Below, piece after piece: positions 8,947 through 46,651 of a stretch of 64,000 nucleotides of DNA. The stretch is from Syntrophales bacterium. GTDB taxonomy: Bacteria > Desulfobacterota > Syntrophia > Syntrophales > UBA2185. Every line of letters begins with the position of its first letter. Within the stretch, counting starts at the first letter, position 1. The position numbers and the translations under genes were made by a program. The notes beneath the pieces were generated by a model. It was not told the DNA's origin and did not search any database. It saw only the letters and a program-made list of their open reading frames with translations. The stretch covers positions 11,639 to 75,638 of the forward strand of contig JBEKXK010000002.1 in assembly GCA_049512055.1 (NCBI GenBank). The letters run 5' to 3'.

Positions 8947-10223
8947 TGGAAGGTATTCTCCTGTTTGGCCTCTTCCTCCTGATCCTTTTCGCGGGTGTTC
9001 CTGTCGCTGTCGCTTTGGGAACTGTCTCCCTTTTTCTCATCTGGCTCTATAATTTAGGCATCTCCGGCGTATCTCCGAATTTTTATGCCGGCATCGCCAA
9101 GTTCCAGCTCCTGGCTATTCCTTTCTTTATTCTGGCTGGCCTGATCATGGACCGCTGCGGCATCTCGAAAAGGTTGGTTCATCTGATCAGCCTCATCATA
9201 GGGCCTATTCATGGGGGGCTTGCCCTGGTGACTGTCATTGTCGGTTTGATTTTTGCCGGGATATCCGGCTCCGGTCCGGCGGACACGGCGGCCCTGGGAA
9301 CCATTCTTATCACAGCCATGGCGGCGAGGGGATACGCGAAGGATTTCAGCGCCGCCCTGATCGCCGCATCGGGCTCTCTGGCAATCATCGTTCCTCCCAG
9401 CATCGCCTTCATAATCTACGGGGTCATCACAGGCACCTCGATCCCCGCCCTTTTCGCTGCCGGCGTGTTACCCGGTATCATCACCGGCCTTGTTCTTATG
9501 ATCCCCTCCTATATCATCTCAAGGAAAAGGGGCTGGAGAGGTGAGAGATGGGGAACACGCAAAGAAATCTGGGACGCCTTCAAGGAGGCCTTCTGGGGGC
9601 TCATGGCCCCATTCGTCATCCTGGGCGGCATGTACGGCGGTATCTTCACGCCGACGGAAGCAGCAGTGGTTGCCGTGTTCTATGGATTGTTCGTGGGCAT
9701 GGTCATCTATCGCGAGCTTGATTTTCACGCTCTCTATGAACTGCTCCGCGACACCGTTTTGTCTTCAGCAGTCATCATGATCATCGTGGGATTTGCCGGC
9801 CTTTATGCCTGGACCGGATCTACCATAGGAGTCATGGACAAGTTCTCCAGCTCTATTCTCTCTCTGTCCACGAATCCCGCTGTTCTTCTCGTGCTTATCA
9901 ACATCATGCTGCTCATCGCCGGCATGCTCATGGATGCGATTTCCATCTATTACATATTCCTCCCTATGCTGATTCCGCTCATCAAGATCTTTAACTGGGA
10001 CCCCATCTGGTTCGGCGTTGTCATGACAGTCAACCTGGCTATCGGCCAGTTAACTCCGCCTGTGGCGGTGAATCTTTACGTTGTCTGCAACATCGCCAAC
10101 ATATCCCTGGAAGAAGTTTCTAAAGCAGTCCTTCCCTTTATTCTTATTATGATCGTCGCGCTGGCCATCATCATCTATTTCCCCTGGCTGTCGCTGTACC
10201 TGCCTGCGCTGTTTAAGTTGTAG
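8946..10223 (+). CDS. dctM: TRAP transporter large permease (DctM family)
   Basis: 425-aa polytopic protein. The start overlaps the dctQ stop (ATGA-type coupling). The sequence is typical of DctM. Confidence 0.92.
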   Translation: MEGILLFGLFLLILFAGVPVAVALGTVSLFLIWLYNLGISGVSPNFYAGIAKFQLLAIPFFILAGLIMDRCGISKRLVHLISLIIGPIHGGLALVTVIVGLIFAGISGSGPADTAALGTILITAMAARGYAKDFSAALIAASGSLAIIVPPSIAFIIYGVITGTSIPALFAAGVLPGIITGLVLMIPSYIISRKRGWRGERWGTRKEIWDAFKEAFWGLMAPFVILGGMYGGIFTPTEAAVVAVFYGLFVGMVIYRELDFHALYELLRDTVLSSAVIMIIVGFAGLYAWTGSTIGVMDKFSSSILSLSTNPAVLLVLINIMLLIAGMLMDAISIYYIFLPMLIPLIKIFNWDPIWFGVVMTVNLAIGQLTPPVAVNLYVVCNIANISLEEVSKAVLPFILIMIVALAIIIYFPWLSLYLPALFKL

Positions 10224-10442
10224 CATGGGCACTGATTTCAATTTGAACCGTAGCCCTCTCATTTAGTACAAATTAAGGGGGGGGTCTATTGATCACGATA
10301 TGGAATGTGATAGACGGCGGCGTATTCTATGCGCGGTGGTCGTGCCATGGCTGTTCACTACTGGCTTCATGAACACTGTCAAGATTAAAAACCTGACCTA
10401 CTCTTGCAGCATGGTTGCCCGAACCTTAATGTCTTCTCTCAG

Positions 10443-10733
10443 TTAATGAACCTTCTGTTCTCCCGGATCAATTAGTTTCACGGTCCCGAATTTATCTTCA
10501 TACTGTTTCAGGTTTATCGTTAGGGCTTCGATCGCTCTCTTAACATTGCCCGGACTCAGTATTATTCTTGAAACCAAGTGAGTCCCATTGGGCGAGCTTA
10601 AGAGCCAGTCAATAATGAACTCTTCCGGGCTATGTGCGACCAGCATCAAATTGCTGTATCTGCCTCTCGATATTTCATCAACGGTATTAATCTGGACCTG
10701 CTGGGGTTGCTTGGGATCAGATTTGTCTGCCAT
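10443..10733 (-). CDS. DUF3467-family small protein
   Basis: 96 aa. The core RGRYSNLMLVAHSPEEFIIDW is recalled as the DUF3467 signature (recall only). AAGGAGAG SD upstream. Confidence 0.7.
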   Translation of the reverse strand: MADKSDPKQPQQVQINTVDEISRGRYSNLMLVAHSPEEFIIDWLLSSPNGTHLVSRIILSPGNVKRAIEALTINLKQYEDKFGTVKLIDPGEQKVH

Positions 10734-10779
10734 ATTGCTCTCCTTTATTGTGGAAAAAGGTGACGGCTCTATTTATTGC

Positions 10780-10836
10780 GGCTCTGGGGCCGCAATACCT
10801 ATTTCAAAAATCTGTATTATGTCCCCAGATTATTAA
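10780..10836. repeat. 57-bp hairpin-containing direct repeat, copy 1 (degenerate stem)
   Basis: ggctctggggccgcaatacctatttcaaaaatctgtattatgtccccagattattaa. It matches 11303..11359 at all but 2 positions (both in the left stem arm). It contains the stop codon and last codons of ORF 10817..11197. Confidence 0.85.
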
Positions 10837-11197
10837 TGTCTTCGAATTGAAGAATTGGCCACACTTCACCCGGTGAGATCGTGTCCATGCCTGACGGATT
10901 CCAACAGATACTGGCTCCTTCTATGGCTAAGTGCTTTATAAAATCAAAAGAAGTTAATACCTGTTTTTTGCCATCTATTACAAAAAAAGCCTTTTTTATT
11001 ATGGCAGGACCTACTCCCCTATTGTGAAGAACTATTGATAGAGGGCGATCTGAAACATCCCAGTATTCAAAAGCCAGAATGGGTTTAACTGCAAGGCGAT
11101 TATGTTTTCTATGAGTTAAACCTTGCCAGACAGATACAATCAGCGCCGAAATTGCTATGACAACGGCTGAAATTGATATTATAGTATTCTCATTCAT
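10817..11197 (-). CDS. hypothetical single-pass membrane protein in AT-rich island
   Basis: 126-aa ORF with an N-terminal TM (IISISAVVIAISALIVSVW). No SD, low G+C, no recognised family. Confidence 0.4.
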   Translation of the reverse strand: MNENTIISISAVVIAISALIVSVWQGLTHRKHNRLAVKPILAFEYWDVSDRPLSIVLHNRGVGPAIIKKAFFVIDGKKQVLTSFDFIKHLAIEGASICWNPSGMDTISPGEVWPILQFEDINNLGT

Positions 11198-11302
11198 ATA
11201 TTCTTAGGCACGTAATACAAATTTAGTTGATCATCAATAGACGTCTGGCAATCTCCTCAAGCATCTCCAAAATTCTGAAGATTATGATGCGAACTCTATA
11301 TG

Positions 11303-11359
11303 GGCTCTGGGGACACAATACCTATTTCAAAAATCTGTATTATGTCCCCAGATTATTAA
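11303..11359. repeat. 57-bp hairpin-containing direct repeat, copy 2 (best stem)
   Basis: ggctctggggacacaatacctatttcaaaaatctgtattatgtccccagattattaa. CTGGGGACAcAATAC pairs with GTATTaTGTCCCCAG as a 15-position stem with one mismatch and a 15-nt loop. Confidence 0.85.
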
Positions 11360-11534
11360 GTGGTTTTTGCATTTTTTCATAGTACCATTCCCCTTTGTTA
11401 TGTCAAGTTAGCAATTACTTAAAAATACACTTGATTTTTGCCCTACAATAATCACAAGAATCCTGATATATTAGTTATTACTCTCGATAAAACTGCAATA
11501 TAGCGATTATAAATAGAACCACCACCGGAAACCA

Positions 11535-12209
11535 ATGGACAATATCTTTAGCGAAAATCTCACTTTTGCAATTGGAATCATTGCGGGCCTCTTCGCTATA
11601 TTGGCTGGCCATCGCCTCTTGATATATCGAGACAAAAGAAGACGAGCCGATGATGCCGCTAATGAACTCAGGAAGGTTCTCAATCAAATGCTTGTTGATG
11701 TCCGTAGCGATAACACTGATGCCATTCTTAATGTTTTCTCCATTGATAAGAAGAGGATCAAGGGACACCATGTTGCATATCTCAACTTTCGCCATCACTT
11801 GAAAGGGGAATGCCGCAATCAGTACGATGATGCATGGAATCAATATCATGACGACTTTATATACCAATGGGATTTCGATGGTTCTCTTCGTGAGAGACTT
11901 GTAAAAGACATAGAAGATTTGCTTCGATTTACGGAATATAGGTTCTTTAAAAATATGTCCCTTATTTGGCAGAAAATATGGTGGAGAATTAGGTTTAAGA
12001 TTTTTGGGTTTATAAAGAAAGGAAGGAGCTTCTTGAAAAATGGGACACACCTCGGAGAGATGAAAAAAGTATCAAAGAAGCCGATAATTCTCTTGATAAA
12101 CTTTTTAGTAAAATCGAGGAAGATGAGGACGATGGGGATTATGATCCACTGGGTAGAAATAAGAAGTAACCACTTTTGCCTTGCCTTCTCTACCCCTGTA
12201 TCAAAGTAA
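11535..12209 (+). CDS. hypothetical membrane-anchored protein (possibly frameshifted) in AT-rich island
   Basis: The first ~135 aa look protein-like (TM FAIGIIAGLFAILAG, then a charged helical region). The tail looks like noise. The +1 frame over about 11990..12170 reads a plausible acidic C-terminus (ELLEKWDTPRRDEKSIKEADNSLDKLFSKIEEDEDDGDYDPLGRNKK). It competes with the antisense ORF 11478..12050, so strand and integrity are uncertain. Confidence 0.35.
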   Translation: MDNIFSENLTFAIGIIAGLFAILAGHRLLIYRDKRRRADDAANELRKVLNQMLVDVRSDNTDAILNVFSIDKKRIKGHHVAYLNFRHHLKGECRNQYDDAWNQYHDDFIYQWDFDGSLRERLVKDIEDLLRFTEYRFFKNMSLIWQKIWWRIRFKIFGFIKKGRSFLKNGTHLGEMKKVSKKPIILLINFLVKSRKMRTMGIMIHWVEIRSNHFCLAFSTPVSK

Positions 12210-14544: not shown

Positions 14545-14579
14545 CTCGTTTTCTTAATTGCCGGGAACATTATTTAATC

Positions 14580-14692
14580 GAAGCTCTCCGCAGCAAGCTG
14601 CGGAGAATCTTCGATTCTTAAGGAACAGTATCGTTCGTCATTCGCTCGCTTACCCCGCAGCACGCCACGGGGAATGCACTTGCTACCGAATT
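14580..14692. repeat. 113-bp intergenic repeat, copy A
   Basis: Same length and orientation as 17420..17532, with 11 mismatches counted by eye (~90% identity). Contains the hairpin GAAG-ct-CTCCGCAGC-aa-GCTGCGGAG-aat-CTTC and a CCCCG...CGGGG stem. Confidence 0.9.
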
Positions 14693-14716
14693 CATCGCTC
14701 TTATATCTTTTGTGTC

Positions 14717-14923
14717 CTAACCCCGATCCCTAGATGTATCCGGCCTCTTCGGAATTATGAGCCACATGGCAAAGTAGGCGGGAATGGCAAACCCGAATGA
14801 TAAGAGGACAAGCATAATAAAAATAATTCTTATCAAGGTGGCATCCCGGTCAAAATACTCCCCGATGCCCCCGCAGACGCCTCCTATTTTCTTGTCAGTA
14901 GACGAAAGATATAACCTTTTCAT
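14717..14923 (-). CDS. PspC-domain membrane protein
   Basis: 68 aa. KKIGGVCGGIGEYFDRDATLIRIIF followed by a TM helix is typical of a PspC domain. Confidence 0.8.
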   Translation of the reverse strand: MKRLYLSSTDKKIGGVCGGIGEYFDRDATLIRIIFIMLVLLSFGFAIPAYFAMWLIIPKRPDTSRDRG

Positions 14924-14945: not shown

Positions 14946-17402
14946 TTAACCATCTTTTGCAGCGGCCGACCCCTTGCTCTTCGAACGAGTCTTCTGCTCC
15001 TTCACTATGCGTATCGTTTCTCGGACTTCCTTGGGAGTGACGCTCTTCCTGATCTTCTCCATCTTCTCCATGACCTCTTGAAAGCGAAGTCCTTCCGCCG
15101 CGCTTATCCACTCCAGGGCCAGCCTTTCCGTGCGGAGGCCCATCTTTTCCATCTTCTTCCAGATGCGCTTGATACGCCGCTCTGTCCACTGATTGGCGTT
15201 CATGTAGTGGCAGTCGCCTATGTGACAGCCCGATACCAGCACTACGGGCGCCCCTTTGGCAAAGGCACGCCAGATGAACTTCTCGTGCACCCTGCCGGAG
15301 CACATGGTCCGGATCAGGCGGGTGTTGTGCGAGTAGTGAAGCCGCGATACACCGGCGATATCGGCTCCTGCATAGGAGCACCAGTTGCATGCGAAGACCG
15401 GTATCCTCTCGGCGGCATTCCCTTCGAGCACGGCGTCAATCTGAGCCTCAATCTGCGCGTCTGTAAAATGATTCATCATAATAGCCATGGTGGGGCATTC
15501 AGCCGCGCATGTGCCGCAGCCCGAACATGCCGCTTCGGTGACTACTGCTGCCGTCTTCGCCCTTGTGTCCACGCTGATGGCATTGTACGGGCACACCTTT
15601 GCACACAGGCCGCAGGAGTTGCATAGTTCGGGATCAACTGCCGCTGTGATCGCCTCCACAGTGAGCGATCCGGGATTCATGAGGCGCATGGCCCGGGCAG
15701 TGGCTGCAGAGGCCTGGGTGACGGAATCTTTTATGTCTTTGGGACCTTCGGCGCAGCCGGCAAAGAAGATCCCCCGTGTCGCTGAATCCACGGGCTGCAG
15801 CTTCGGGTGGGCCTCCAGGTAGAAGCCGTCCGATGTTGTCTGGAGGGCCAGCATCTCCTGAATAGTCTTCATGTCTGCCGGAGGTTCGAGGCCTACAGCG
15901 AGGACAGCCATTTCCGTGTGGTGGCTCTCCAACTCATTTGTAGCTGTGTTTTCCACTGTCAACACAAGATCCCGCGTTGCGGGGTCCTGCTTAATGTCAC
16001 CGGGAAGGCCCCGGATGTAACGGACACCCATACCCTTGCTGCGCCGGAAGAGATCCTCGAATCCCTTGCCAAAGGCCCGGATGTCAATATAGAACACCTT
16101 CACCTCCATGTCCGGATAGTGTTCTTTGAGCATGATCGTGCTCTTCACAGTGTTCATGCAGCAGATATTCGAACAGTAGGGCCTGCCCCGGCGCTGGGAT
16201 CGGGAGCCCACGCATTGTATGAAGGCGACGGACTTGGGAATCTTACCATCTGTAAGGCGGATGACCTTGCCGCTCGTAGGCCCGCCGGCATTGATCAGGC
16301 GCTCGAGCTCCATGCTCGTCAGCACGTTCTCGTAGCGGGTGTAGCCATACTCATCGAGAATAGTCGGATCATAGGCCTCCATGCCCGTGGCCACGATGAT
16401 TGTGCCGACGTCGAACTCCATCTCTTCATCGTTCATGTCGAAGTCGATGCAGCGCTTCTTGCATTTTTCTATGCACTTTCCGCAGATGATGGGATTGTGA
16501 CCCAGGCATCGGGTGATATCGACGGCAAAAGCCCCCGGCACCGCTTGAGGAAAAGGCGAATAGATGGCCCGGCGGGAGCTCAGTCCCATGTTGAACTCAT
16601 CGGGAATGATGACCGGGCAGACCTCAACGCAGTCGCCGCATGCCGTACACTCCTTCTCCTTCACGTACCTCGCCCTCTTCAGGATGCGCACATGAAAGCT
16701 GCCCACGAATCCCGTGATCTCTTTTACTTCACTCATCGTTAAGAGCGTAATGTTGGGATGCCGACCGGCATCCGTCATCTTGGGACCGAGTATTCAGATG
16801 GAACAGTCCATAGTGGGAAATGTCTTGTCCAGCCTCGCCATGATGCCGCCGATGCTCGGTTGTTTCTCGACGAGTATCACCTTGTAGCCCGAGTCCGCGA
16901 GATCAAGCGCCGCCTGGATCCCCGCCACACCTCCACCTATAACCAGAGTTGAGGGTGCGACCGGAACATCCATTTCCGTTTGTGCGGCAAGCAGGCGGAC
17001 CCTTGATACGGCGGAGCGCACCAGATCTCTCGCCTTGATAGTGGCATTCTTGGCGTCATGGCTGTGCACCCATGAACATTGCTCACGGATGTTCGCCATC
17101 TCCATAAGGTAAGGGTTCAGTCCGGCCTCACTGACGCACTGCCGGAACGTAGCCTCATGAAGCCGCGGTGAGCACGAGGCCACCACTACACGGTTGAGTC
17201 CAAATTCCTCTATGTCACTCTTGATCTGGTTCTGGCCGGGCTCGGAGCATGTGTATCCCTGGTTCCGGCATATCACAACGTCCGGCAGTTTACCTGCATA
17301 TGCAGCCACTGCATCGCAATCGACAACGCCCGCGATATTAGATCCGCACTGGCAGACATAGACGCCTATTCTGACTGCGTTATCCTGTTTTGATTCTTCC
17401 AT
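14946..17402 (-). CDS. hdrA: heterodisulfide reductase subunit A-like flavoprotein with fused C-terminal MvhD domain; selenocysteine encoded by in-frame UGA at 16794..16796
   Basis: ORFs 16794..17402 and 14946..16778 share one frame and are separated only by TGA plus 5 sense codons. The junction reads [29 protein letters not shown], which places U at the Cys/Sec position of the HdrA motif. Other supporting motifs are the FAD motif [16 protein letters not shown], several CxxCxxCxxxCP clusters, and a C-terminal [15 protein letters not shown] (MvhD/FlpD-type). The full product would be 818 aa. Confidence 0.85.
16756..16773 (-). other. SECIS-like hairpin downstream of the hdrA UGA
   Basis: The mRNA reads GGAUGCC-GGUC-GGCAUCC, a 7-bp stem with a GGUC loop. 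It starts 20 nt after the UGA. Position and a G/U-containing loop resemble bacterial SECIS apical hairpins. Confidence 0.55.
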
Positions 17403-17419
17403 TCATCATCCTCTTTATT

Positions 17420-17532
17420 GAAGCTCTCCGCACCAAGCTGCGGAGGATCTTCGATTCTTAAGGAACATTACTATTCGTCATTCGCTCGCTTACCCCGCGG
17501 CAAGCCACGGGGACTGCGCTCGCTACCGAATT
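17420..17532. repeat. 113-bp intergenic repeat, copy B
   Basis: Counterpart of 14580..14692. It fills most of the gap between the hdrCB-like stop (17545) and the hdrA SD/start (17402). Confidence 0.9.
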
Positions 17533-17544
17533 GAAACCTCTATA

Positions 17545-18699
17545 TTACGCGATCTGGTCGGCCAGAACGGACACCAGATCCCGTATTTCCATCTTTATCT
17601 TCTTCCCCTGCATCAATGGATCGCGTATAGTGCAGGTGAGATGGATCATGCATTTGGGACATGCCGTAACGAGCATGTCCGCACCGGTTGCCCGCGCCTC
17701 CTCGAGCCTCTGCACCTGAATCTGCTTTGAAGATGCATCACAGTTGATGAAGCCGCAATTCCCGCAGCACAAAGCGCCCCTGCCTGAGTGTTCCATCTCC
17801 CGGAACTCCATTTCCGGAATGAGGCCGAGCAATTCCCTCGGGCCTGCATAGCGGTTCAGCATGCGCCCAAGCCTGCATGGATCCTGAAAAGTGACGGTGC
17901 GCTTGAGCGGCCGGAAGACCGTGCTGCCAAGCTGCATCTCCCGTTGGAGGAGATCCAGGAGCAAAGTTACTCTAATGTCAAACCCCGGTATGATGCGCGG
18001 CATGTGCTCACTCAAGACCTGGAAACACTCGGGGCACGAGACGATGATCTCCTTCACGCCGGCATCCTTGAAGGATGTGTAGTTCAGCCGGCAGAGCGCC
18101 TCAAAGTTTTCAATATCCCCCGACCAGAGCAGGTCGTGTCCGCAGCATCTTTCATTCGGCAGGAGAACAGGCTTGATGTCCAGAAAATTCAACAGGCGCA
18201 CGCTGTCTTTTGCTATAGAGACCGTATCCACATCGATGCCGGCGAAGAAGACATTGAAATATGGCGCGCATCCGGTGAAAAATGCGACGTCTCCTGACGA
18301 AGCCACTTTAATGCCTGGATCCAGCCAGTCGAGGCGGTTCTGCTTGAGGCGCGGGGCAGTCATCATCCTCATCCAGGAATGGATGGCGCCGTCGTGGGCG
18401 CGATAGCCCTTCAAGCCTTTTGTTTCAGCCAGCAGCGTACGCATCTCCAGGATGAAACGATTGAAATCCACGCCCGATGGGCAGCGTTCACGGCATAAGC
18501 CGCAGGTCAGGCATTCCCAGACCGAATTTTCGATGTAGGCCTCGTCCTCGCGCTCGGAGATCACTTTGTGCGCCAATAATCTGGGGGAGTATTCCTTGCC
18601 TGAGAGCCTTCGCGGGCACGAAGCAGTGCACTTGCCGCATTCCAGACATTGGTACAGCGACATATCTACGATCATCTGATCGATCTTCGGGTCGTTCAA
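17545..18699 (-). CDS. HdrC/HdrB-fusion (HdrD-like) iron-sulfur protein with two CCG domains
   Basis: 384 aa. The N-terminus has CLECGKCTASCP and CLTCGLCRERCP (2x[4Fe-4S], HdrC-like). The C-terminal part has CCGHD and CCGNCG cysteine-rich CCG motifs (HdrB-like). Confidence 0.85.
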   Translation of the reverse strand: MNDPKIDQMIVDMSLYQCLECGKCTASCPRRLSGKEYSPRLLAHKVISEREDEAYIENSVWECLTCGLCRERCPSGVDFNRFILEMRTLLAETKGLKGYRAHDGAIHSWMRMMTAPRLKQNRLDWLDPGIKVASSGDVAFFTGCAPYFNVFFAGIDVDTVSIAKDSVRLLNFLDIKPVLLPNERCCGHDLLWSGDIENFEALCRLNYTSFKDAGVKEIIVSCPECFQVLSEHMPRIIPGFDIRVTLLLDLLQREMQLGSTVFRPLKRTVTFQDPCRLGRMLNRYAGPRELLGLIPEMEFREMEHSGRGALCCGNCGFINCDASSKQIQVQRLEEARATGADMLVTACPKCMIHLTCTIRDPLMQGKKIKMEIRDLVSVLADQIA

Positions 18700-19127
18700 C
18701 TCTTCAACTCCTCCAGTTTGCGGCCTTCTCTGGACATCAGAGTCCCCAGAGCCTTCACCTCTTCCCTAAAATTCCATAGAGTCCGAACCAGCTCTTCTTT
18801 TTCATGGGCCCCGAAGGTGCGCTCCACCAGCCGTTCCTGGCGGATTCCCAGAAGGTGGAGTATCCTGCGGACGCGGTGCACATTTTCATGGCCCACCTCA
18901 GGCCCCGGGCCGTAGCGGCAATCCTCGTCCGTGCATTCCAGAAGTATTACTCCGTCTGCGCCAAACTCAAAGGCCCTCAGGATAAGGGCCTGATTGATGC
19001 GGCCGATGCACATCACCCGTATCAGGTGAAAGTTCGCCGGCATGCTCATCCCCGTCATCCCCGCTGCGTTGTAGCAGGCGAAAGGACTCCAGTTGCAGCA
19101 TATCGCCAGGATGCGGACAGGCTCCAT
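18696..19127 (-). CDS. mvhD: MvhD/FlpD-like (methyl-viologen-reducing hydrogenase delta subunit family) protein
   Basis: 143 aa. ILAICCNWSPFACYNAAG ... GADGVILLECTDEDCRYG parallels the C-terminal domain of the hdrA product. The stop overlaps the next gene's start by 4 nt. Confidence 0.8.
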   Translation of the reverse strand: MEPVRILAICCNWSPFACYNAAGMTGMSMPANFHLIRVMCIGRINQALILRAFEFGADGVILLECTDEDCRYGPGPEVGHENVHRVRRILHLLGIRQERLVERTFGAHEKEELVRTLWNFREEVKALGTLMSREGRKLEELKS

Positions 19128-22100: not shown

Positions 22101-22503
22101 GGGGAGGATGGCTCGAATTCTGAAGGGGACAAATCTCCATGCAGCGACCGCATCCCGTGCAGAGGTCATAGTTAACATATACGGGGTCTTGTGTGATGAC
22201 GGCCCGATAGCCATCGGGACCCCGCTTGATGGCCTCGATGCGCGCATGGGTTAAGGCGGTGACCAGCGGATGACGCGTTACCTGCAGGTACAGCGGGCGG
22301 AACTGGAAATCCAGATCCTCAGGGTAATCGGTAAAGGGCGCGGCTCCCCCGGGGTGCTCCAGGAAGTGAATCGCTTTCGTGACCCAGACCAGGGGCAGGC
22401 CGGATTGCGAGAGGTCCTGCGCCACTTTAAGGGCACCGTAACCGGAGCCTACAAGGAGAACGGCTTTTTTCAGGTTGCTGGTTGAGGAACTCCGATGCAT
22501 CAC
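19129..22503 (-). CDS. HdrL-type giant flavoprotein: HdrA-like domains plus GltD/NfnB-like NAD(P)H oxidoreductase module plus ferredoxin domains
   Basis: 1124 aa. GltD-like segment: CPLGVNVHAYM..ICGRVCHHPCEEACRR, VAVVGGGPAGLAAAYFL, VVVIGGGNSAIDAARSA, FAAGDAVTGP. HdrA-like Cys-rich segment: ILASCVCCPLEFQCISCNDQ. Further dinucleotide folds are LLVGSGYGALKVAQDL and ILILGGSEVGLSAALNL. The C-terminus has 2x CxxCxxCxxxCP. Confidence 0.8.
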   Translation of the reverse strand: MMHRSSSTSNLKKAVLLVGSGYGALKVAQDLSQSGLPLVWVTKAIHFLEHPGGAAPFTDYPEDLDFQFRPLYLQVTRHPLVTALTHARIEAIKRGPDGYRAVITQDPVYVNYDLCTGCGRCMEICPLQNSSHPPLRRTPAYCPSRALDLDKRKPSPCRISCPLGVNVHAYMALTAASRFDEALDMIRQDNPLPGICGRVCHHPCEEACRRSSLDQAVAICSVKRFLADREMAKHRPRLPGAQKPLRPERVAVVGGGPAGLAAAYFLNREGFSVTVFEAHREAGGILRMGINAFRLPREVLDAEIQAIADAGVEMRTGTPIRSIKDLIDQGFQAVLLCTGAHRDLRLNITGEDAKGVYGALEMLKELNTGGKPNIRGDVVVIGGGNSAIDAARSAIRLGAKSVTICYRRKRKDMPAHESEIRSAQEEGVKIEYLVAPVGIVSRRGRVTGLDMIRMKQGAVDESGRRRPEPVKGSEFFRPADTVIVGIGQQPSLAGTGLGKELITGRSGTINVDARLSASQAGVFAAGDAVTGPDTVVGSMSQGRRAAARAVEYLTGVSPLWGALPDESRGAGEHLEISEDTPRKSRPEMQRRQATERRRDFKEVDLGLTEEQTVAEAARCLHCSSCCECRLCESVCKDIGAINHFKNRELMTVSSPAVIVAGDEEIAHLNLADEEHVYRVGDFRSSTDLVNVLIAGSASAGQAMAECSSLRTNSVPCQPVAIASEEEVRFGVFTCTCNGTLATPAALERIRDMALRMPGVMHSDLIFSACHPHGAERIAAAVREHRLGRVILASCVCCPLEFQCISCNDQRNRARILLFERHGLDRCRFETINIRDHLGSPDVSEEMLVERMRNFLREAFIRARVMGPLRQSTTKIGNRILILGGSEVGLSAALNLNMQGFKVRLIHRCSLKDDQKAPADVRKRPVSRIAGASITHVEEALIEGIKGHLGDFTVAVRENGVRKNFHADVVCLADMNVLPLAIPAGMFGLKKFYRYNFKFFHSPQIGVYRVMPRTLKRVTAFQAGAALAAHVATTAAEAFLKDHELSPKVDRKRCRGCGRCVEICPFDAVRLVANERGFYTAEVLRYNCVGCGGCVGRCPVTAMDMPYFTNRLLEEIVAGALVREL

Positions 22504-23102
22504 TAATCCCTTGGCAACCTGCCCTGTTTTGCCCGGCTCTTGAGGGTAGCCTTGCCGTATTCGCTGCCGCGCTCGAAGGCCCGTGCGTTTACTTCCCGCG
22601 TTGGCGCCGGCACAGACGTCTGCACAGCTTTGCGCAAAGCCTCAGCGCTCACTAAATTATATACGGCAGCAAGAAATCCGAGCATGACGATATTCGCCAT
22701 CATTCTGTTGCCCAACTCTTCGGCGAAGCGGGTCGCCGGTATATTGTATGTGGTTACGTCTGAAGAATTTTTTTTTGCCTGCACAAGATCCGATTCCAGG
22801 ATTAGCGTGCCGCCGTCACGCAGACTGCCGATATTCTTGGAATAGCCTTCCTGGCTCAGACAGATCAGGACATGCGGCTCCTTTATATAAGGGAAAAGGA
22901 CTTCCTCATCGCTGATAATAATCTGGGCCGAGCAGGCGCCACCCCGAGCCTCAGGGCCGTAGGCCTGCGTCATGGTGGCAAATTTTCCGTCGTAAAGAGT
23001 GGCGGCCGTTCCGAGGATGTCGCCGGCCATGATGACCCCCTGTCCGCCGAAGCCCGTTATGAGAATGTGTTTTTCCTTATTCATGATAGTATCGCTAATC
23101 AC
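22503..23102 (-). CDS. 2-oxoacid:ferredoxin oxidoreductase, gamma subunit
   Basis: 199 aa. HILITGFGGQGVIMAGDILG is typical of OFOR gamma. Its boundary shares one base with the hdrL start. Confidence 0.9.
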   Translation of the reverse strand: MISDTIMNKEKHILITGFGGQGVIMAGDILGTAATLYDGKFATMTQAYGPEARGGACSAQIIISDEEVLFPYIKEPHVLICLSQEGYSKNIGSLRDGGTLILESDLVQAKKNSSDVTTYNIPATRFAEELGNRMMANIVMLGFLAAVYNLVSAEALRKAVQTSVPAPTREVNARAFERGSEYGKATLKSRAKQGRLPRD

Positions 23103-23992
23103 CCTGCCTGATTTTCCGGCACGATCGTGCCTTCAAAATCCGGCCAGTCCCCAATCAGATTCTTGCAGCTCAACTGATAGTTATCCATAAATGTCGACCG
23201 TTCGGTGTCCACAAATTTGCCCACTACGATATTGCTGCCGAAGTCTATGGGCGCCTCTTTTGGATCGATGTCGTTGCGAATGACGGAACGCTCATGATAA
23301 AACTTCAGAGTCTCCAGGGCAGTGCCGATCTTGTTGCGGCGCCCGAAGGAGGTGGGGCAAGGAGTCAGGACCTCGACGAACCCGAACCCGCGCTTCTGCA
23401 TTGCCTCGGTAATGGAGTTTGTGAGCCTGCGTATATGCAAAGACGTCCAGCGTGCGACGTAAACCGCACCGCATGCAGAGGCCAGATAGCAGAAATTGAA
23501 CGGTTCCTCCGGACAGCCCGTGACGCTTGTGGTAGTCTTAGCCCCGAAAGGCGTACTGGGAGCGAGTTGCCCGCCGGTCATCCCATAGTTTAAGTTGTTC
23601 ACACAGATGACTGTAACGTCAATGTTCCGCCGGGCCGCATGGATGAAATGATTGCCCCCTATGGCAAGCAAGTCACCGTCACCGGAGATGACGATCACCT
23701 TCAGCTCCGGTTTCGCCAGCTTCAGGCCGGTGGCGAATGGCAGAGCGCGGCCGTGCGTTGTGTGGAAGGAATCCAGCCGGATATATCCGGCCATCCGCGC
23801 GGTGCATCCGATACCGGAAACTATGGCAGTCTTGTCCAGATCGTTGCCTGATTTCTGAATGGCGGCAATCACAGACCCGAAGACGGTGCCGATGCCGCAC
23901 CCGGCGCACCATATATGGGGAAGCCGCTCACTCCGGATCAATCCTTCCATGGGATGCTCGGGCAGGGTCTTTTCCGCTTTTTTCGTCTTCAT
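23099..23992 (-). CDS. 2-oxoacid:ferredoxin oxidoreductase, beta (TPP-binding) subunit
   Basis: 297 aa. WCAGCGIGT and ISGDGDLLAIGGNHFIHAARRN (TPP GDG motif). 4-nt overlaps on both sides. Confidence 0.92.
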   Translation of the reverse strand: MKTKKAEKTLPEHPMEGLIRSERLPHIWCAGCGIGTVFGSVIAAIQKSGNDLDKTAIVSGIGCTARMAGYIRLDSFHTTHGRALPFATGLKLAKPELKVIVISGDGDLLAIGGNHFIHAARRNIDVTVICVNNLNYGMTGGQLAPSTPFGAKTTTSVTGCPEEPFNFCYLASACGAVYVARWTSLHIRRLTNSITEAMQKRGFGFVEVLTPCPTSFGRRNKIGTALETLKFYHERSVIRNDIDPKEAPIDFGSNIVVGKFVDTERSTFMDNYQLSCKNLIGDWPDFEGTIVPENQAG

Positions 23993-25149
23993 TTCTTCCC
24001 CTTTATAGAGTCTTCAATGGCGCTTAGGATGGTTACAGGGTGGATTATGGAACCGCCCATGTGGGACACCAGATGAACGGGACACGCGCCTCCGGCGCAC
24101 CGCTGCAATTCGAGGACCATCTGGCCTGCGTTAATTTCCGGCATAATGAGGGCGCGCACCCGGCCGGCTACGTCTCTGATAAGTGTTTCGGGAAAGGGCC
24201 ATACCGTTTCCAGTTTGATAAGTCCCGCGCGTATGCCTCTGTTTCGCGCATCGCGCACGGCCTGCCTGGCGGACCGCGCACTGATCCCATAAGCAACTAC
24301 AACGACATCAGCATCGTCGAGGAAAATATTTTCCGTCCGGATGATCTTGTCCCTGTTGTTTACGATTTTCCCGATCAGACGATTGACCATCTGCGCCTGT
24401 GTCTTCTCGTCCATCCCCGGATAACCGCGCTCATCATGCGTCAGACCTGTGATATGGATCCTGTAGCCGTCACCGCAGTTGGCCATGGGCGCGACCCCGT
24501 CCGGATCCGGGTGATAGGGCAGATAATCTCTTGGAGATACCTTTGGCTTCCGCCGTCCGACAAGCTTGATTTCCTCTTTTCGGGGAATGACGACGCGCTC
24601 GTTCATGTGACCGACTACCTCGTCCGCCATGATCATGACGGGTATACGGTACTGCTCGCTGAGGTTGAATGCGCGGACGGTCAAATCAAACATCTCCTGG
24701 GGACTGGAGGGTGCAAGCGCAATGACCTCGTAATGCCCGTGTGACCCCCAGCGGGCCTGCATCATATCCCCTTGGCCGACGAGCGTCGGGAGTCCCGTAG
24801 AAGGCCCTGCCCGCTGCACATTACAGATCACACACGGTGTCTCCGTACAGATCCCGAGACCGATATTCTCCATCATCAGGGAAAAGCCCGGACCGGACGT
24901 GCTGGTCATGGCCTTCACGCCTCCCCAGCTTGCACCCAGGATAGCCGACATGGATGCGATCTCGTCTTCCATTTGAATATATATGCCGCCTAGTTCCGGC
25001 AGCCTCCGGGACATGCGCTCGCCAATCTCCGTTGCCGGGGTAATCGGATACCCCGCGAAAAAGCGGCATCCCGCAGCCAGAGCGCCCTCACAGCAGGCAT
25101 AGTCACCGTTCATGAAATAGGTCCCCGTCAATACGGCCTTATCAGCCAT
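23989..25149 (-). CDS. 2-oxoacid:ferredoxin oxidoreductase, alpha subunit
   Basis: 386 aa. FAGYPITPATEI and MTSTSGPGFSLMMENIGLG are typical of the OFOR alpha subunit. Confidence 0.92.
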   Translation of the reverse strand: MADKAVLTGTYFMNGDYACCEGALAAGCRFFAGYPITPATEIGERMSRRLPELGGIYIQMEDEIASMSAILGASWGGVKAMTSTSGPGFSLMMENIGLGICTETPCVICNVQRAGPSTGLPTLVGQGDMMQARWGSHGHYEVIALAPSSPQEMFDLTVRAFNLSEQYRIPVMIMADEVVGHMNERVVIPRKEEIKLVGRRKPKVSPRDYLPYHPDPDGVAPMANCGDGYRIHITGLTHDERGYPGMDEKTQAQMVNRLIGKIVNNRDKIIRTENIFLDDADVVVVAYGISARSARQAVRDARNRGIRAGLIKLETVWPFPETLIRDVAGRVRALIMPEINAGQMVLELQRCAGGACPVHLVSHMGGSIIHPVTILSAIEDSIKGKK

Positions 25150-25206: not shown

Positions 25207-25509
25207 CTACTTGTTCTTCCTTCGAGACCGGGCGGTCTTACCCTGTGCTGTTTCTGCTGCCTCTATGGAGAATATTCCAAATTCCGGACACAGGGCCTCG
25301 CAGAAATGGCAATTGACACATTTTGACTCGTCTATGACTGCAGGCGTATGATAGCCTTTGGCATTAAATGCCTGAGACATGGCAAGCACATCGCGCGGAC
25401 AGTATGCGACGCAGAATCCGCACCCTTTGCAGCGATCCTCGACGATGATGACCTTACCCCTGCTGGCCTTGATACTCTCCAGATCGAGCGGTTTTCTCCA
25501 GTATTTCAT
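25207..25509 (-). CDS. 2-oxoacid:ferredoxin oxidoreductase, delta (2x[4Fe-4S] ferredoxin) subunit
   Basis: 100 aa with CKGCGFCVAYCP and CVNCHFCEALCP. First gene of the operon, giving the order delta-alpha-beta-gamma as in OorDABC/KorDABG-type clusters. Confidence 0.88.
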   Translation of the reverse strand: MKYWRKPLDLESIKASRGKVIIVEDRCKGCGFCVAYCPRDVLAMSQAFNAKGYHTPAVIDESKCVNCHFCEALCPEFGIFSIEAAETAQGKTARSRRKNK

Positions 25510-42272: not shown

Positions 42273-44054
42273 ATGACGATGGTCAATATTAACATAAATG
42301 GCCAGAAAGTCAGTGCACCAGCAGGCAGTACCATTCTTAAGGCCGCAAAGCAGGCAGGCATTGACATCCCTACGCTCTGTGACCATCCTGCTTTGATTCC
42401 AGTCGGTGCTTGCCGAATATGCGTTGTGGAGGTTAAAGGACAGCGCACCCTGATCACGGCATGTACTTTCCCTATCTCTGAGGGAATGGAAATACAAACA
42501 GAATCACCAGAGGTAATTAAAGCGCGAAAATTAGTCCTTGATCTGCTATTTTCAGAAAGAAACCATGTTTGTCCGATCTGTGAGGCATCCGGAAACTGTG
42601 AATTACAGGATATGGGGTACCGCTACGGTCTTAATCACTGGACTTACCCGACATTCACAAAGCCCTTCCCCATAGACGCCACACATAAGTTCCTGTTCAT
42701 GGAACACAACCGCTGTATACTGTGTGGAAGATGTGAACGCGGATGCAGTGAAGTGGTGGCCAACCACACCCTCGGCCTGCGAAATCGCGGCAATCAATCC
42801 ATGATCCACTGCGACGCAAATATGCCTTGGGGTGAATCTACGTGCATCTCTTGCGGTACTTGCCTGCAGCTATGTCCAACCGGCGCCATATCCGATAAGC
42901 GAAGCGCCTTCATGGGCCGTGACATCCAGACGGAACAGACAAAAAGCACTTGCAGCCAGTGCAGTATCGGGTGCGGGATGGAAATCGTCACCCGCGGCGG
43001 CAATGTCCTTAAAATCAAGAGCGACTGGGACGCAGAAGTCAGCGGTGGGCGGCTGTGCGAATACGGCCGTTTCGATCCTCTTTACGATGTACGTAAGCGG
43101 ATAACCAGCCCCATGCTCCGGCACCGGGGCAAGCTCGAGCCGGTGAGCTGGGATGAAGCCCTGCAAGCTGTTACTGAGCGTGTCGGCAAGGCGAGTGCGA
43201 AGGATTTAGGGGTGCTTGCATCGACATACTCGACGAATGAGGCGCTTTATCTGCTTGCCAAGTTATTCCGCCAGGAACTGAAAGCAACCAATGTTGGCGT
43301 CCTCAACGACGTTGCCCCGAAACTGTCCGAAAAACCAGGCTCGCTTGCTGACATCACCATAGGCGACGTCATTCTGGTGGTCGGTTGTGATCCGCTTAAG
43401 GATCAGCCGGTTTCCTCTTTCTTTGTCAAGCGTTCCGTTGACAAGGGCGCGCGGCTCATAGTGGTGGACGGTAAAGACAACGGACTGGCGCCATTCGCCT
43501 ATATGAATCTCGGGATGGCTGACGTAGGCAAGGCTATTGAAATCGCGGAGCGTGCCTCACATCCTGTCGTGCTGTTTGGATCGGGCGTCACGGACAAGGC
43601 TGCCACAGCTCTGAAGAAACTACAGGGGAAGGCTTCCTTCGTGGCAATAGAGAATGGCGTCAATACGCGTGCAGCGGCGGCTTTAGGTCTGAATAACGGG
43701 TTTAAGCCGTCCGGCGTCAAGGTGCTCTTCACCTTAGTCGGTGAGCAAAAGATGGGTGAGGAGGATGTATCCAAGAATGTTGACAAGAAGGCGTTTGTCA
43801 TAGCGCAAGCCAGCTTCGTATCTCCTCTGACCGAGCGGGCCGATGTGGTTCTGCCTATGGCCGTATGGTCAGAAAGGTCTGGAAGCCTGACGAATACCGA
43901 GGGCCGCGTGCTGAAAGTCAATAAAGCAACAGAACCTAAGGGAGAAGCCAAACCTGACTGGGAGGTTCTCTCTTTGCTGGCAAACAAACTGGGAAAGAAG
44001 CTTGGCACTTCGTTGAGTGAGATTTCAGCTCGGGCAACCCAGGAAATCAAGTGA
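42273..44054 (+). CDS. HoxU/NuoG-like iron-sulfur subunit with FdhA-like (cofactor-less?) molybdopterin-oxidoreductase-fold extension
   Basis: 593 aa. N-terminal [2Fe-2S] ferredoxin fold (CDHPALIPVGACRICVV), NuoG-type His/Cys cluster (HVCPICEASGNCELQ), and 2x[4Fe-4S] (CILCGRCERGC, CISCGTCLQLCP). These are followed by a 4Fe-4S Mo/W-bis-PGD-type entry motif (CSQCSIGCGM) and ~350 aa of molybdopterin-fold sequence that stops well short of a full FdhA. Confidence 0.8.
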   Translation: MTMVNININGQKVSAPAGSTILKAAKQAGIDIPTLCDHPALIPVGACRICVVEVKGQRTLITACTFPISEGMEIQTESPEVIKARKLVLDLLFSERNHVCPICEASGNCELQDMGYRYGLNHWTYPTFTKPFPIDATHKFLFMEHNRCILCGRCERGCSEVVANHTLGLRNRGNQSMIHCDANMPWGESTCISCGTCLQLCPTGAISDKRSAFMGRDIQTEQTKSTCSQCSIGCGMEIVTRGGNVLKIKSDWDAEVSGGRLCEYGRFDPLYDVRKRITSPMLRHRGKLEPVSWDEALQAVTERVGKASAKDLGVLASTYSTNEALYLLAKLFRQELKATNVGVLNDVAPKLSEKPGSLADITIGDVILVVGCDPLKDQPVSSFFVKRSVDKGARLIVVDGKDNGLAPFAYMNLGMADVGKAIEIAERASHPVVLFGSGVTDKAATALKKLQGKASFVAIENGVNTRAAAALGLNNGFKPSGVKVLFTLVGEQKMGEEDVSKNVDKKAFVIAQASFVSPLTERADVVLPMAVWSERSGSLTNTEGRVLKVNKATEPKGEAKPDWEVLSLLANKLGKKLGTSLSEISARATQEIK

Positions 44055-44068
44055 AAGGAGAATCGACA

Positions 44069-44614
44069 ATGGCAAAAGTTAAGATTGCCACTGACTGGCT
44101 GGCTGGCTGTGCAGGATGTCACATGTCGGTATTGGACATTGATGAACGCATTGTGAAGCTGTTAGAAGCGGTGGAAATTACATCCAGTCCTGTGACGGAC
44201 CTGAAACATCCGCCGAAAGAAGGTGTGACTGTTGGAATACTTGAAGGAGCAATCTGCAATACGCATAATGTGGAAGTAGCGAAGGTCATGCGCGAACGCT
44301 GCCAGATTCTGATAGCCCTCGGGGATTGTGCTACTTTTGGAAATGTCCCCGCTATGCGCAATTTGTGCGGCACGGACGAGGCCTTGAAACGCGCGTATCT
44401 GGATACGGAAAGCGTCGTGGACGGACTCATTCCTGACTCCCCGGAGCTGGGGAAGCCGCTTGACATGGTTACAGGCATTGATAAGGTGGTGAAGGTCGAT
44501 CTCTTTATACCTGGTTGCCCTCCGAGCGCGGATGCTATCTTCCATGCATTATCGGAACTGCTCGCCGGACACGTGCCAGTAAGTTTCCCACCCCCATTAT
44601 TCAAATATGATTAG
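44069..44614 (+). CDS. hoxY: [NiFe]-hydrogenase small subunit, HoxY-like (NuoB/20 kDa fold, proximal cluster only)
   Basis: Start at MAKVKIATDWLAGCAGCH, 8 nt after AAGGAG; the track start at 44051 is in frame. GDCATFG and IPGCPP complete the proximal cluster ligands. About 181 aa, so it lacks medial and distal cluster domains. Confidence 0.88.
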   Translation: MAKVKIATDWLAGCAGCHMSVLDIDERIVKLLEAVEITSSPVTDLKHPPKEGVTVGILEGAICNTHNVEVAKVMRERCQILIALGDCATFGNVPAMRNLCGTDEALKRAYLDTESVVDGLIPDSPELGKPLDMVTGIDKVVKVDLFIPGCPPSADAIFHALSELLAGHVPVSFPPPLFKYD

Positions 44615-44626
44615 AGGAGAGTAGCT

Positions 44627-46057
44627 ATGGGTGCTAGAAAGATAACTATTGAACCTATAACACGTATCGAAGGTCATGGGCGGATAACTATCCACCTGAA
44701 TGAAAAGGGCGAGGTGGACCAGACCTTCTTCCACGTTGATGAATTCCGCGGTTTGGAAAAATTCACCGAAGGTCGCCCATACTTTGAGATGCCGGCGATT
44801 ACCCAGCGCATCTGTGGTATCTGCCCGGTAAGCCACCACCTGGCCGCAGCCAAGGCCTGTGACGGCGTAGCCCGTGTAGAACTGCCGAGACCGGCCAAGT
44901 TGCTCCGCGAATTGATGCATATGGGCCAATATATACAGTCCCACGGCATGCACTTTTTCCACCTGGCGGCGCCTGATTTGGTTTTGGGTTTCGACGCTGA
45001 TCCGGCCATAAGGAATGTTGTCGGAATTATCCAGGCGAACCCGGAACTGGCGCTGAAGGCGGTGAACCTGCGTCGTTACGGACAGCAGGTCATCGAGAGA
45101 TTGGGTGGAAAGCGCATCCATCCGACTTTTGCCGTCCCAGGTGGGGTTAATGCGCCGCTATCGCCGAAAGACCGCGACGCTATCCTTGCTGAATTTGATA
45201 CCATGGTGGAGATTGCCAAGGTTGCCGTCAGCATCGGCAAGGGGTGGATAGGGGCCAACAAAGAATTGGTTGACGCCTTCGCGTCCTTCCCTTCCAACTA
45301 CATGGGTCTCGTGGATATGGAAGGCGGCCTGCAACTTTACGATGGAGAGATCCGGGTAAAGGATGCGCAGGGTAACTTTGTAGCACAGTTCAAGCCGGCC
45401 AATTACCTGTCACATGTGGGAGAGCATGTGGAGTCATGGTCATTCCTCAAGTTCCCCTTCTACCGCAAATTAGGCTGGCCGGATGGAACCTATCGAGTGG
45501 GCCCGCTGGGTAGAATGAACGTGGTGGACAAAATAGGAACGCCTCTTGCCAACGAAGAGCTCAAACTCTTCAAGCAGATAAACGGCGGCAAACCTGTTGA
45601 AGGTTCTCTCTATTACCACTATGCGAGATTGATCGAACTGGTATACGCGCTGGAGCGTCTGGCTCAGTTGCTGGATGATCCGGATATCATGTCCAACGAT
45701 ATCTGTGCCTATCCGTCTGGAGCCCAGATCCCCGGCCAGGGAGTTGGTGTCATCGAAGCCCCGCGAGGAACCCTCTTCCATGATTACAGTACAGATGAGA
45801 ACGGCAAATTGACCCGGGTAAACCTTATTGTAGCCACAGGTAACAATAACTGGGCCATGCATACAGCCTCGGGGCTCGTTGCAAGGGCTTTCGTAGATGG
45901 CAATAAGCTGACCGAGGGGATGTTGAACAGGGTAGAAGCAGCTATCCGCTGCTACGATCCCTGCCTGTCGTGTGCGACACATGCATTTGGGAAGATGCCG
46001 CTGGAAGTCACGCTCATAGCGGCGGACGGCACAGTCCTGGATCGCGTGTCCCGGTAA
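44627..46057 (+). CDS. hoxH: [NiFe]-hydrogenase large subunit, cytoplasmic group 3 (HoxH-like)
   Basis: 476 aa. ITRIEGHG, N-terminal Ni-Fe ligands RICGICPVSH, and C-terminal DPCLSCATH followed by a 24-aa extension that a maturation protease would remove. Confidence 0.92.
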   Translation: MGARKITIEPITRIEGHGRITIHLNEKGEVDQTFFHVDEFRGLEKFTEGRPYFEMPAITQRICGICPVSHHLAAAKACDGVARVELPRPAKLLRELMHMGQYIQSHGMHFFHLAAPDLVLGFDADPAIRNVVGIIQANPELALKAVNLRRYGQQVIERLGGKRIHPTFAVPGGVNAPLSPKDRDAILAEFDTMVEIAKVAVSIGKGWIGANKELVDAFASFPSNYMGLVDMEGGLQLYDGEIRVKDAQGNFVAQFKPANYLSHVGEHVESWSFLKFPFYRKLGWPDGTYRVGPLGRMNVVDKIGTPLANEELKLFKQINGGKPVEGSLYYHYARLIELVYALERLAQLLDDPDIMSNDICAYPSGAQIPGQGVGVIEAPRGTLFHDYSTDENGKLTRVNLIVATGNNNWAMHTASGLVARAFVDGNKLTEGMLNRVEAAIRCYDPCLSCATHAFGKMPLEVTLIAADGTVLDRVSR

Positions 46058-46090
46058 TACAGAAATCTGATTCTCCACGAGTTTAACGCA

Positions 46091-46129
46091 AGCGGGTAAA
46101 CGCAGGTAGTTTACCCGCTTTAACTTTTT
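46091..46129 (+). terminator. strong hairpin plus T-rich tail between hoxH and the maturation protease gene
   Basis: AGCGGGTAAAC-gcaggta-GTTTACCCGCT (11-bp perfect stem, 46091..46119) followed by ttaacttttt. It could be a partial terminator, an attenuator or a processing site. Confidence 0.5.
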
Positions 46130-46147
46130 GGGCTTGCTGGGGACCTG

Positions 46148-46651
46148 ATGCCTCGTACTCTGGTTATTGGTATTGGCAATATAGACCGCGCCGATGATGG
46201 CATTGCATATTATGTGGTAAATGCCCTGCGGCGGCGCCTCGGCCAAGGGATGCTGCACGAAGACGAAACCGGGTTGGAGAGCCTGGGCGCACAGATAGAT
46301 TCCGTATTTTTGGTGCAGCTCGCACCGGAGTTGATGGATGTAATAATCCCTTACGATAAGATCATCTTTGTAGATGCACACGTTTATGAGAACGTGGATA
46401 GTCTCTATTGCGCCCCTGTATTTCCGGAGTTCACTCCCGCCACATTCACCCACCATCTGACGCCTGCGATGCTTCTTGCACTGCTCAAGTCACTTCACCA
46501 TCGAGAACCTGCGGGGCATATAGTTTCTATCCGCGGCTATGACTTTGATTTCCATCGCAGCCTCTCTACCGATACCGAGGCCCTCGTGGAGAAGGCAGTG
46601 GATCATATTCTGCAAGCGCATGGACCCTTGCATGATGAATCTTGCGCTTAA
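46148..46651 (+). CDS. hoxW: hydrogenase maturation endopeptidase (HoxW/HycI family)
   Basis: 167 aa. TLVIGIGNIDRADDGIAYYV is the typical N-terminal motif. It lies directly after the large subunit gene. Confidence 0.85.
   Translation: MPRTLVIGIGNIDRADDGIAYYVVNALRRRLGQGMLHEDETGLESLGAQIDSVFLVQLAPELMDVIIPYDKIIFVDAHVYENVDSLYCAPVFPEFTPATFTHHLTPAMLLALLKSLHHREPAGHIVSIRGYDFDFHRSLSTDTEALVEKAVDHILQAHGPLHDESCA

Follow-up and report, generated by a model that had tools for sequence, protein, structure and literature searches.

Within a 64,000-nucleotide stretch of a contig from a Syntrophales bacterium (GenBank assembly GCA_049512055.1, contig JBEKXK010000002.1, forward-strand positions 11,639 to 75,638; this whole stretch is called the window and is numbered from its first letter), two minus-strand open reading frames (ORFs) that are listed as separate genes are one gene, hdrA-mvhD, for an 818-residue HdrA2-type flavoprotein. 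The two ORFs are divided by an in-frame UGA, which, judging from the sequence, very probably encodes selenocysteine (Sec) at the known selenium site of HdrA, and our confidence is high that the product contains Sec and is of the HdrA2 type. Its family, the position of Sec, the mechanism of recoding and the bacterial lineage had all been described before, and no concept is changed by this finding; its main value is practical, namely the correction of a widespread and systematic split-gene annotation.

One reading frame across an in-frame UGA

Read on the minus strand from ATG 17402, the frame runs through 202 codons to the TGA at 16796..16794 and then through a further 615 codons. Only five sense codons, AUA CUC GGU CCC AAG (ILGPK), lie between the TGA and the in-frame ATG with which the second listed ORF (16778..14946) begins. 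An earlier note on this DNA had joined the two ORFs as being in the same frame and separated by the TGA and five codons alone, and all of its coordinates are exact; the sizes that it had predicted, about 89 kDa for the joined product and about 22 and 67 kDa for separate ones, agree with the computed masses, which are 89.7 kDa when the UGA is read through and 21.7 and 67.4 kDa for the two parts. The read-through product matches the NCBIfam model NF040770 (HdrA2) over profile positions 1-775 of 777 with 1211.6 bits, and the curated cut-off of this model (1100 bits) is passed only by the whole read-through product. The crystallised HdrA (PDB 5ODC_A) matches its residues 11-659 (E = 8e-237), and MvhD chains from PDB match residues 666-795 (E ~1e-36). 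The product comprises an HdrA N-terminal Fe-S domain, an FAD/thioredoxin-reductase-like domain, an inserted and a C-terminal ferredoxin domain and a fused MvhD domain. Direct inspection of the sequence found no Shine-Dalgarno motif before the internal ATG 16778.

The residue that the UGA replaces was determined from homologues. A search over 5.8 billion proteins was made and its 120 best clusters were listed; 67 of these represent full-length Cys-type homologues, which are single proteins of about 798-822 amino acids (aa), 61-76% identical, and the column of the UGA is Cys in every one of the 67. The motif around this column in the full-length homologues is FPT[MLI]DCSIC[IV]L[GA]PK. Residue U203 aligns without gaps to Cys197 of 5ODC_A, and the residue at this position is Sec197 in HdrA from Methanococcus maripaludis (PMC13518236). 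The stop therefore stands where the earlier note had placed it, at the conserved Cys of the FPTxDCSxC-ILxPK motif, and a genuine gene boundary among the homologues, which would have spoken against its reading, is not seen at the junction, the Cys-type relatives being single chains.

The UGA is equally constant among the close relatives. One scan of species-representative genomes gave 18 loci that are 67-96% identical, all from metagenome-assembled genomes (MAGs) labelled Syntrophaceae, Syntrophales, Thermodesulfobacteriota, 'delta proteobacterium' or uncultured bacterium, and TGA is found at exactly this codon in 18/18 of them. The ILGPK codons between the stop and the ATG are kept as coding in all 19 sequences. 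Across the relatives the upstream part of 202 codons and the downstream part of about 600 codons are equally conserved, with no decay: the identities of the N-terminal and the C-terminal part are 98.5 and 94.8% in locus L004, 74.3 and 78.2% in L014, and 66.7 and 66.9% in L018. No further interruption was found in hdrA of the relatives, except for a shortened C-terminal ORF in locus L020 and two loci that are cut by contig ends. In L020 (OY970063.1, a MAG with a complete chromosome) the downstream part of hdrA is a 452-codon ORF that ends with TGA and of which only 304 residues align; the shortening may have arisen through a frameshift in assembling the MAG and have no biological meaning.

A separate observation concerns the two codons that directly follow the UGA (AUA CUC, 16793..16788, minus strand). 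They are near-fixed at their synonymous sites, in 18 of the 19 sequences, and the Cys-type homologues have AUC CUU or GUG CUC at the same place. The near-fixed AUA CUC may point to a constraint on the context of the UGA.

The earlier note had also stated that gene callers split this gene, and the public records agree. An entry that is 100% identical (JGI metagenome 3300038429, contig Ga0427951_000663 of 64,728 nt) has the gene called as 202 + 596 aa, and a 96%-identical relative on a 751-kb contig (ENA/NCBI) has it called as 202 + 610 aa. The 53 closest clusters (84-100% identical) among the 120 best are products of about 587-612 aa with the same cut site; nearly all of them start with MTDAGRH, and four start at a Met further in. 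In public catalogues this gene is stored as fragments of 202 aa and about 587-612 aa, and so are at least 53 protein clusters related to it. As a result, metabolic reconstructions overlook or mis-score a complete electron-bifurcation flavoprotein of Syntrophales from peat, sediment and digesters, and the need of these syntrophs for selenium is put too low.

The SECIS-like hairpin and the proposed recoding

The earlier note had pointed to a hairpin 20 nucleotides (nt) downstream of the UGA that resembles the apical hairpin of a bacterial selenocysteine insertion sequence (SECIS). The hairpin GGAUGCC-GGUC-GGCAUCC is present as described: it begins 20 nt past the A of the UGA and is retained in the minimum free energy (MFE) fold. 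The upper stem-loop is part of an extended 32-nt element (Table 1), which has an MFE of -13.2 kcal/mol (z = -2.76; 3 of 200 shuffles were as stable) and whose lower helix is 94% paired across the relatives. We compared the element with the bacterial SECIS model, the consensus of Zhang & Gladyshev as given in Figure 2 of PMC13188914. The apical loop has 4 nt (3-9 nt required), the upper stem 7 bp (4-16 bp), the first two loop positions are GG (at least one G, in a G[G|U] pattern), the spacing from UGA to loop is 27 nt (16-37 nt), and the MFE of -13.2 kcal/mol compares with a required value of -7.5 kcal/mol or below. The likeness to a bacterial SECIS is therefore borne out by the published model as well as by the constraint on synonymous sites that is described below.

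The GGUC loop is invariant in 19/19 sequences. Among the 18 distinct sequences, 96.5% of the stem cells are paired; sliding the 3' partners by 1-3 columns lowers this value to 26-61%. One compensatory pair was found, a change from C-G to U-A in L018, which occurs together with a change from Ala to Val. The six codons that form the hairpin (+8 to +13 after the UGA; GAU GCC GGU CGG CAU CCC) average 0.18 bit of synonymous entropy, compared with 1.05 bit for the other 127 degenerate codons of a 140-codon stretch, and they are the lowest of 135 six-codon windows in this respect. As a Cys-type control we used the DNA of seven homologues whose peptide at this place is identical or almost so. In five of the seven the codons differ (GAC, GCG/GCA/GUG, GGC/GGA, CGC/CGU and CAC), no more than 3-5 of the 7 pairs are formed, and the loop is another one.

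We propose that the UGA at 16796..16794 is recoded to selenocysteine, and that the complex SelB·GTP·Sec-tRNASec would bind the hairpin inside the coding sequence (CDS) and deliver Sec while the UGA is in the A site. Sec203 would then take the place of the conserved Cys of the DCSxC motif, which is Cys197 of the crystallised HdrA. There, the N-terminal [4Fe-4S] cluster of one HdrA protomer has Cys197 of its partner protomer as a ligand (PMC9012536). A cryo-EM structure of the M. maripaludis Hdr-Vhu-Fwd complex from 2026 has Sec197 together with a Cys in a feature that was read as a selenylsulfide relay from the cluster to the bifurcating FAD, and the authors of this structure regard the exact role of Sec197 as unresolved (PMC13518236). 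Sec203 could be a cluster ligand or part of a selenylsulfide relay; either role is possible, because the protein has the motif C200-S-I-U203 as well as an N-terminal cluster domain of its own. HdrA position 197 would be recoded independently here, with a SECIS of the bacterial type, and the protein thus offers a clean bacterial case for the question of whether Sec at this position is a cluster ligand or a selenylsulfide relay.

Objections and rival explanations

A number of observations weigh against selenocysteine as the residue inserted at this UGA. Covariation alone is weak evidence, since an almost invariant hairpin offers little variation to judge by: only the one compensatory pair occurs, and 39 of 500 shuffles reach the same value. 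The peptide D-A-G-R-H-P is partly self-complementary when encoded, so that the bare hairpin weighs less, while the fixed synonymous sites keep their full weight. Within a 60-nt context the fold is unremarkable (z = -1.25), and it is the 32-nt element alone that stands out. Two of the Cys-type controls keep much of the structure: L026 retains 6 of 7 pairs with a widened loop, and L022, which is the closest Cys-type homologue (76% identical), retains a 6-bp stem and the GGUC loop. No Rfam model matched anywhere in the window at its gathering score. The organism's ability to decode Sec would have to be taken from its lineage by analogy, as no tRNA, tRNA-Sec included, was found by ARAGORN in the window or in 20 related loci with about 250 kb of flanks, and Pfam and NCBIfam scans of the roughly 50 ORFs of the window, which is a metagenome contig, found no SelA, SelB or SelD.

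Some of these points are better understood from their context. Short and variable bacterial SECIS hairpins are not expected to match Rfam covariance models. When the threshold was lowered to E <= 10 for the region 16600..16900, the only candidate was AniS, which was rejected as a chance-level match on the opposite strand. Locus L022 (ENA ERZ511474 NODE_7891) has TGT in place of the UGA and, downstream of it, GAUGCC-GGUC-GGCAUC written with the codons of the Sec clade at +8 to +13; it has the look of a SECIS left over from a recent change of Sec to Cys, and remnants of this kind were described by Zhang et al. in 2006 (PMC1794560). As to the lineage, Syntrophus aciditrophicus, which also belongs to the Syntrophales, has SelD and 19 selenoproteins including four Sec-HdrAs (PMC1794560), and Desulfobacterium autotrophicum has selABCD as well as Sec-containing hdrA, hdrL, hdrD and mvhD genes (PMC2702500). 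HdrA is an established selenoprotein family with bacterial members, as the earlier note had said.

One could argue that the gene is genuinely split: ribosomes would terminate at the UGA and begin again at AUG 16778, and the fragments of 22 and 67 kDa would assemble non-covalently. Gene callers give exactly these two products, an in-frame ATG stands five codons past the stop, and hdrA_N/hdrA_C arrangements are present in some Deltaproteobacteria (PMC1794560). However, such a split would delete an invariant and functionally essential Cys, which is a cluster or redox residue. The ATG at 16778 is the conserved Met of a PKM motif that the single-chain homologues of the Cys type also have, and it is the true start, not this ATG, that is preceded by AGAGGA. 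Moreover, the conservation of the ILGPK codons as coding sequence speaks against a boundary here, and the split would leave the synonymously constrained SECIS-like hairpin unexplained. We therefore consider a genuine split very improbable. The same slight probability is given to the insertion of Cys or Trp by a near-cognate or suppressor tRNA, with the hairpin merely stimulating the read-through. It is true that the inserted residue is not identifiable from the sequence alone and that the Sec machinery was not located in the 64-kb window, nor, as far as tRNA is concerned, in the flanks of the relatives. Yet the hairpin has a loop of the SelB type (GGUC, as in E. coli fdhF) with fitting spacing and size (PMC13188914), the UGA stands where HdrA is known to carry Sec (PMC13518236), and this lineage is known for its many selenoproteins (PMC1794560). 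In addition, TGC or TGT would be far more efficient for Cys, and yet TGA is kept in 18 of 18 species.

The two remaining explanations have practically no probability left. A pseudogene, or a sequencing or assembly error that turned TGC or TGT into TGA, could be considered since a single base separates TGA from a Cys codon and the window comes from a metagenome assembly. Against this, 18 genomes that were assembled independently of one another share the TGA, as do dozens of metagenome clusters; purifying selection acts equally on the two halves, which contain no other stop or frameshift; and a shared systematic error is implausible across different sequencing platforms and studies. The TGA in 18/18 loci together with the equally conserved halves excludes a sequencing error as well as a decaying pseudogene. 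A genome-wide reassignment of TGA to sense (genetic code 4 or 25) has nothing in its favour beyond the in-frame TGA itself, and it is refuted by the use of TGA as a stop: 13 of the 38 other family-supported genes of the window end with TGA at the expected lengths, and TGA also terminates this very hdrA gene in 5 relatives. A six-frame scan of the window for ORF pairs joined by TGA gave no convincing long pair other than hdrA, and the mvhD and hdrD-like genes of the window are uninterrupted. Selenocysteine insertion at the UGA thus remains the reading that we prefer.

Genomic context and comparison with known systems

The hdrA(Sec)-mvhD gene is the last redox gene of a minus-strand cluster that consists of korDABG, an hdrL-like gene, mvhD and an hdrD-like gene (Table 1), and the order hdrL-mvhD-hdrD-hdrA is common to relatives of the Sec type and the Cys type. 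The HdrL type was described in D. autotrophicum (PMC2702500). In the HdrL-like protein, residues ~724-902 are 26% identical to residues 7-175 of HdrA, and the part that bears Cys197 is lacking. An HdrL-like fusion without this part recalls the complementary HdrA pairs that were proposed as heterodimers (PMC9012536).

Table 1. Positions of the hdrA-mvhD gene, its proposed recoding signals, its gene cluster and the hydrogenase cluster in the window
Feature	Position	Strand	Remarks
hdrA-mvhD (HdrA2-type) CDS	14946..17402	minus	818 codons including the proposed Sec203; TAA stop 14948..14946; 819 codons with stop
In-frame UGA, read as Sec203	16794..16796	minus	motif C200-S-I-U203; aligns with conserved Cys
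Upper stem-loop GGAUGCC-GGUC-GGCAUCC	16756..16773	minus	7-bp stem, GGUC apical loop; 97.6% of cells paired, 18 distinct sequences
Extended SECIS-like element, 32 nt	16749..16780	minus	4-bp lower stem (GAUG/CAUU), 2x3 internal loop, upper stem-loop; folded structure with lower stem at 16749..16779
C-terminal MvhD/FlpD domain, residues 668-784	15051..15401	minus	Pfam PF02662, E = 2e-43; Cys type, not Sec
Shine-Dalgarno-like AGAGGA	17409..17414	minus	precedes true start ATG 17402; read from sequence
korD-like ferredoxin (2-oxoacid:ferredoxin oxidoreductase delta)	25509..25207	minus	family scans
2-oxoacid:ferredoxin oxidoreductase alpha	25149..23989	minus	family scans
2-oxoacid:ferredoxin oxidoreductase beta	23992..23099	minus	family scans
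2-oxoacid:ferredoxin oxidoreductase gamma	23102..22503	minus	family scans
HdrL-like fusion, 1124 aa	22503..19129	minus	N-terminal Fer4, GltD-type NAD(P)-binding flavoprotein module, HdrA N-terminal Fe-S, C-terminal ferredoxin domain
Stand-alone mvhD	19127..18696	minus	Pfam PF02662, E = 4e-34
hdrD-like (HdrC-type 2x[4Fe-4S] + two CCG domains)	18699..17545	minus	Pfam CCG, Fer4_8; NCBIfam TfrB/HdrC-like
pspC	14923..14717	minus	directly after hdrA(Sec)-mvhD in the cluster
Cytoplasmic Mvh/Vhu-like [NiFe] hydrogenase cluster	42273..46651	plus	

The domain content suggests that the cluster may encode a flavin-based bifurcating or confurcating module that links ferredoxin, NAD(P)H and a disulfide in a Syntrophales bacterium. 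A more far-reaching proposal, which we put forward as speculation and think unlikely, is that Sec-HdrA2 would be the bifurcating core of an uncharacterised Syntrophales complex encoded by korDABG, hdrL-like, mvhD, hdrD-like and hdrA(Sec)-mvhD, in which Sec203, as a selenium ligand or selenylsulfide relay, would reach across the subunit interface to serve the N-terminal cluster domain of HdrA type in the HdrL-like partner, and that the near-palindromic coding of D-A-G-R-H-P might act as a 'pre-SECIS' for Cys/Sec switching, with L022 as a recent revertant.

Further features were observed around the gene and elsewhere in the window. A direct repeat of about 120 nt, ~90% identical between its copies, flanks the hdrA-pspC unit on the minus strand. 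The copy at 17414..17533 lies between the hdrD-like gene and the start of hdrA and extends into the hdrA ribosome-binding site, and the copy at 14574..14693 lies downstream of pspC. Each copy contains two G+C-rich hairpins, CCCCGTGG-CTTG-CCGCGGGG and CTCCGCA-GCTTGG-TGCGGAG. In L004 (5891..5920) one repeat copy is found upstream of hdrA; in L001 and L005 the repeat is absent, as is pspC, and hdrD and hdrA are separated by 30 nt. The repeat has no Rfam match, and it may be a small intergenic mobile or REP-like (repetitive extragenic palindromic) element. The hydrogenase cluster on the plus strand encodes a NuoG/HoxU-like Fe-S subunit of 593 aa that carries a molybdopterin-type domain, together with small and large subunits (VhuG-like and VhuA-like, respectively) and a maturation protease; the last residues of the large subunit are ...DPCLSCATH, and it is therefore of the Cys type, not NiFeSe. 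The G+C content falls to 0.41 at 10001..12000, compared with about 0.50-0.56 around it, and the overlapping ORFs 11478..12050 (minus) and 11535..12209 (plus) in this low-G+C stretch have no family match.

For comparison with a known bacterial SECIS, the element of E. coli fdhF was extracted from NC_000913.3. Both are hairpins inside the CDS directly past the UGA, with an identical GGUC tetraloop and a G+C-rich stem. They differ in that the loop is at nt 31-34 counted from the U of the UGA here and at nt 22-25 in fdhF, the upper stem here has no bulged U, and the stem sequences are unrelated. With regard to the protein, Methanosarcina HdrA2 (NF040770) is likewise an HdrA-MvhD fusion with the same domains. 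Methanosarcina HdrA2 has Cys at the site equivalent to Sec203 and partners with HdrB2C2, whereas the partner here is an HdrD-like fusion. The archaeal HdrA proteins (5ODC and M. maripaludis) share the DCSxC/U motif and the N-terminal Fe-S, FAD and ferredoxin domains with the protein described here. Contrastingly, the SECIS of M. maripaludis is archaeal and lies in the 3' untranslated region, while a hairpin of the bacterial type stands inside the ORF here. The archaeal enzyme reduces CoM-S-S-CoB.

A further close comparison is with the Sec-HdrAs of Deltaproteobacteria, of which S. aciditrophicus has 4 copies, Syntrophobacter fumaroxidans has 7, and D. autotrophicum has hdrA1 and hdrA2 (Zhang et al. 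2006, PMC1794560; Strittmatter et al. 2009, PMC2702500); the orthologue group studied here is not named in either of these papers. The gene resembles them in family, in lineage, in the UGA at the redox Cys, in the SECIS inside the CDS and in its association with genes of the mvhD/hdrD/hdrL type. It differs from them in its setting: the published context of deltaproteobacterial Sec-HdrA is a glpC-hdrA-frhD-frhG-frhA hydrogenase operon (PMC1794560, PMC2702500), whereas the HdrA described here carries a fused MvhD, and its gene comes after a cluster of 2-oxoacid:ferredoxin oxidoreductase and hdrL-like genes.

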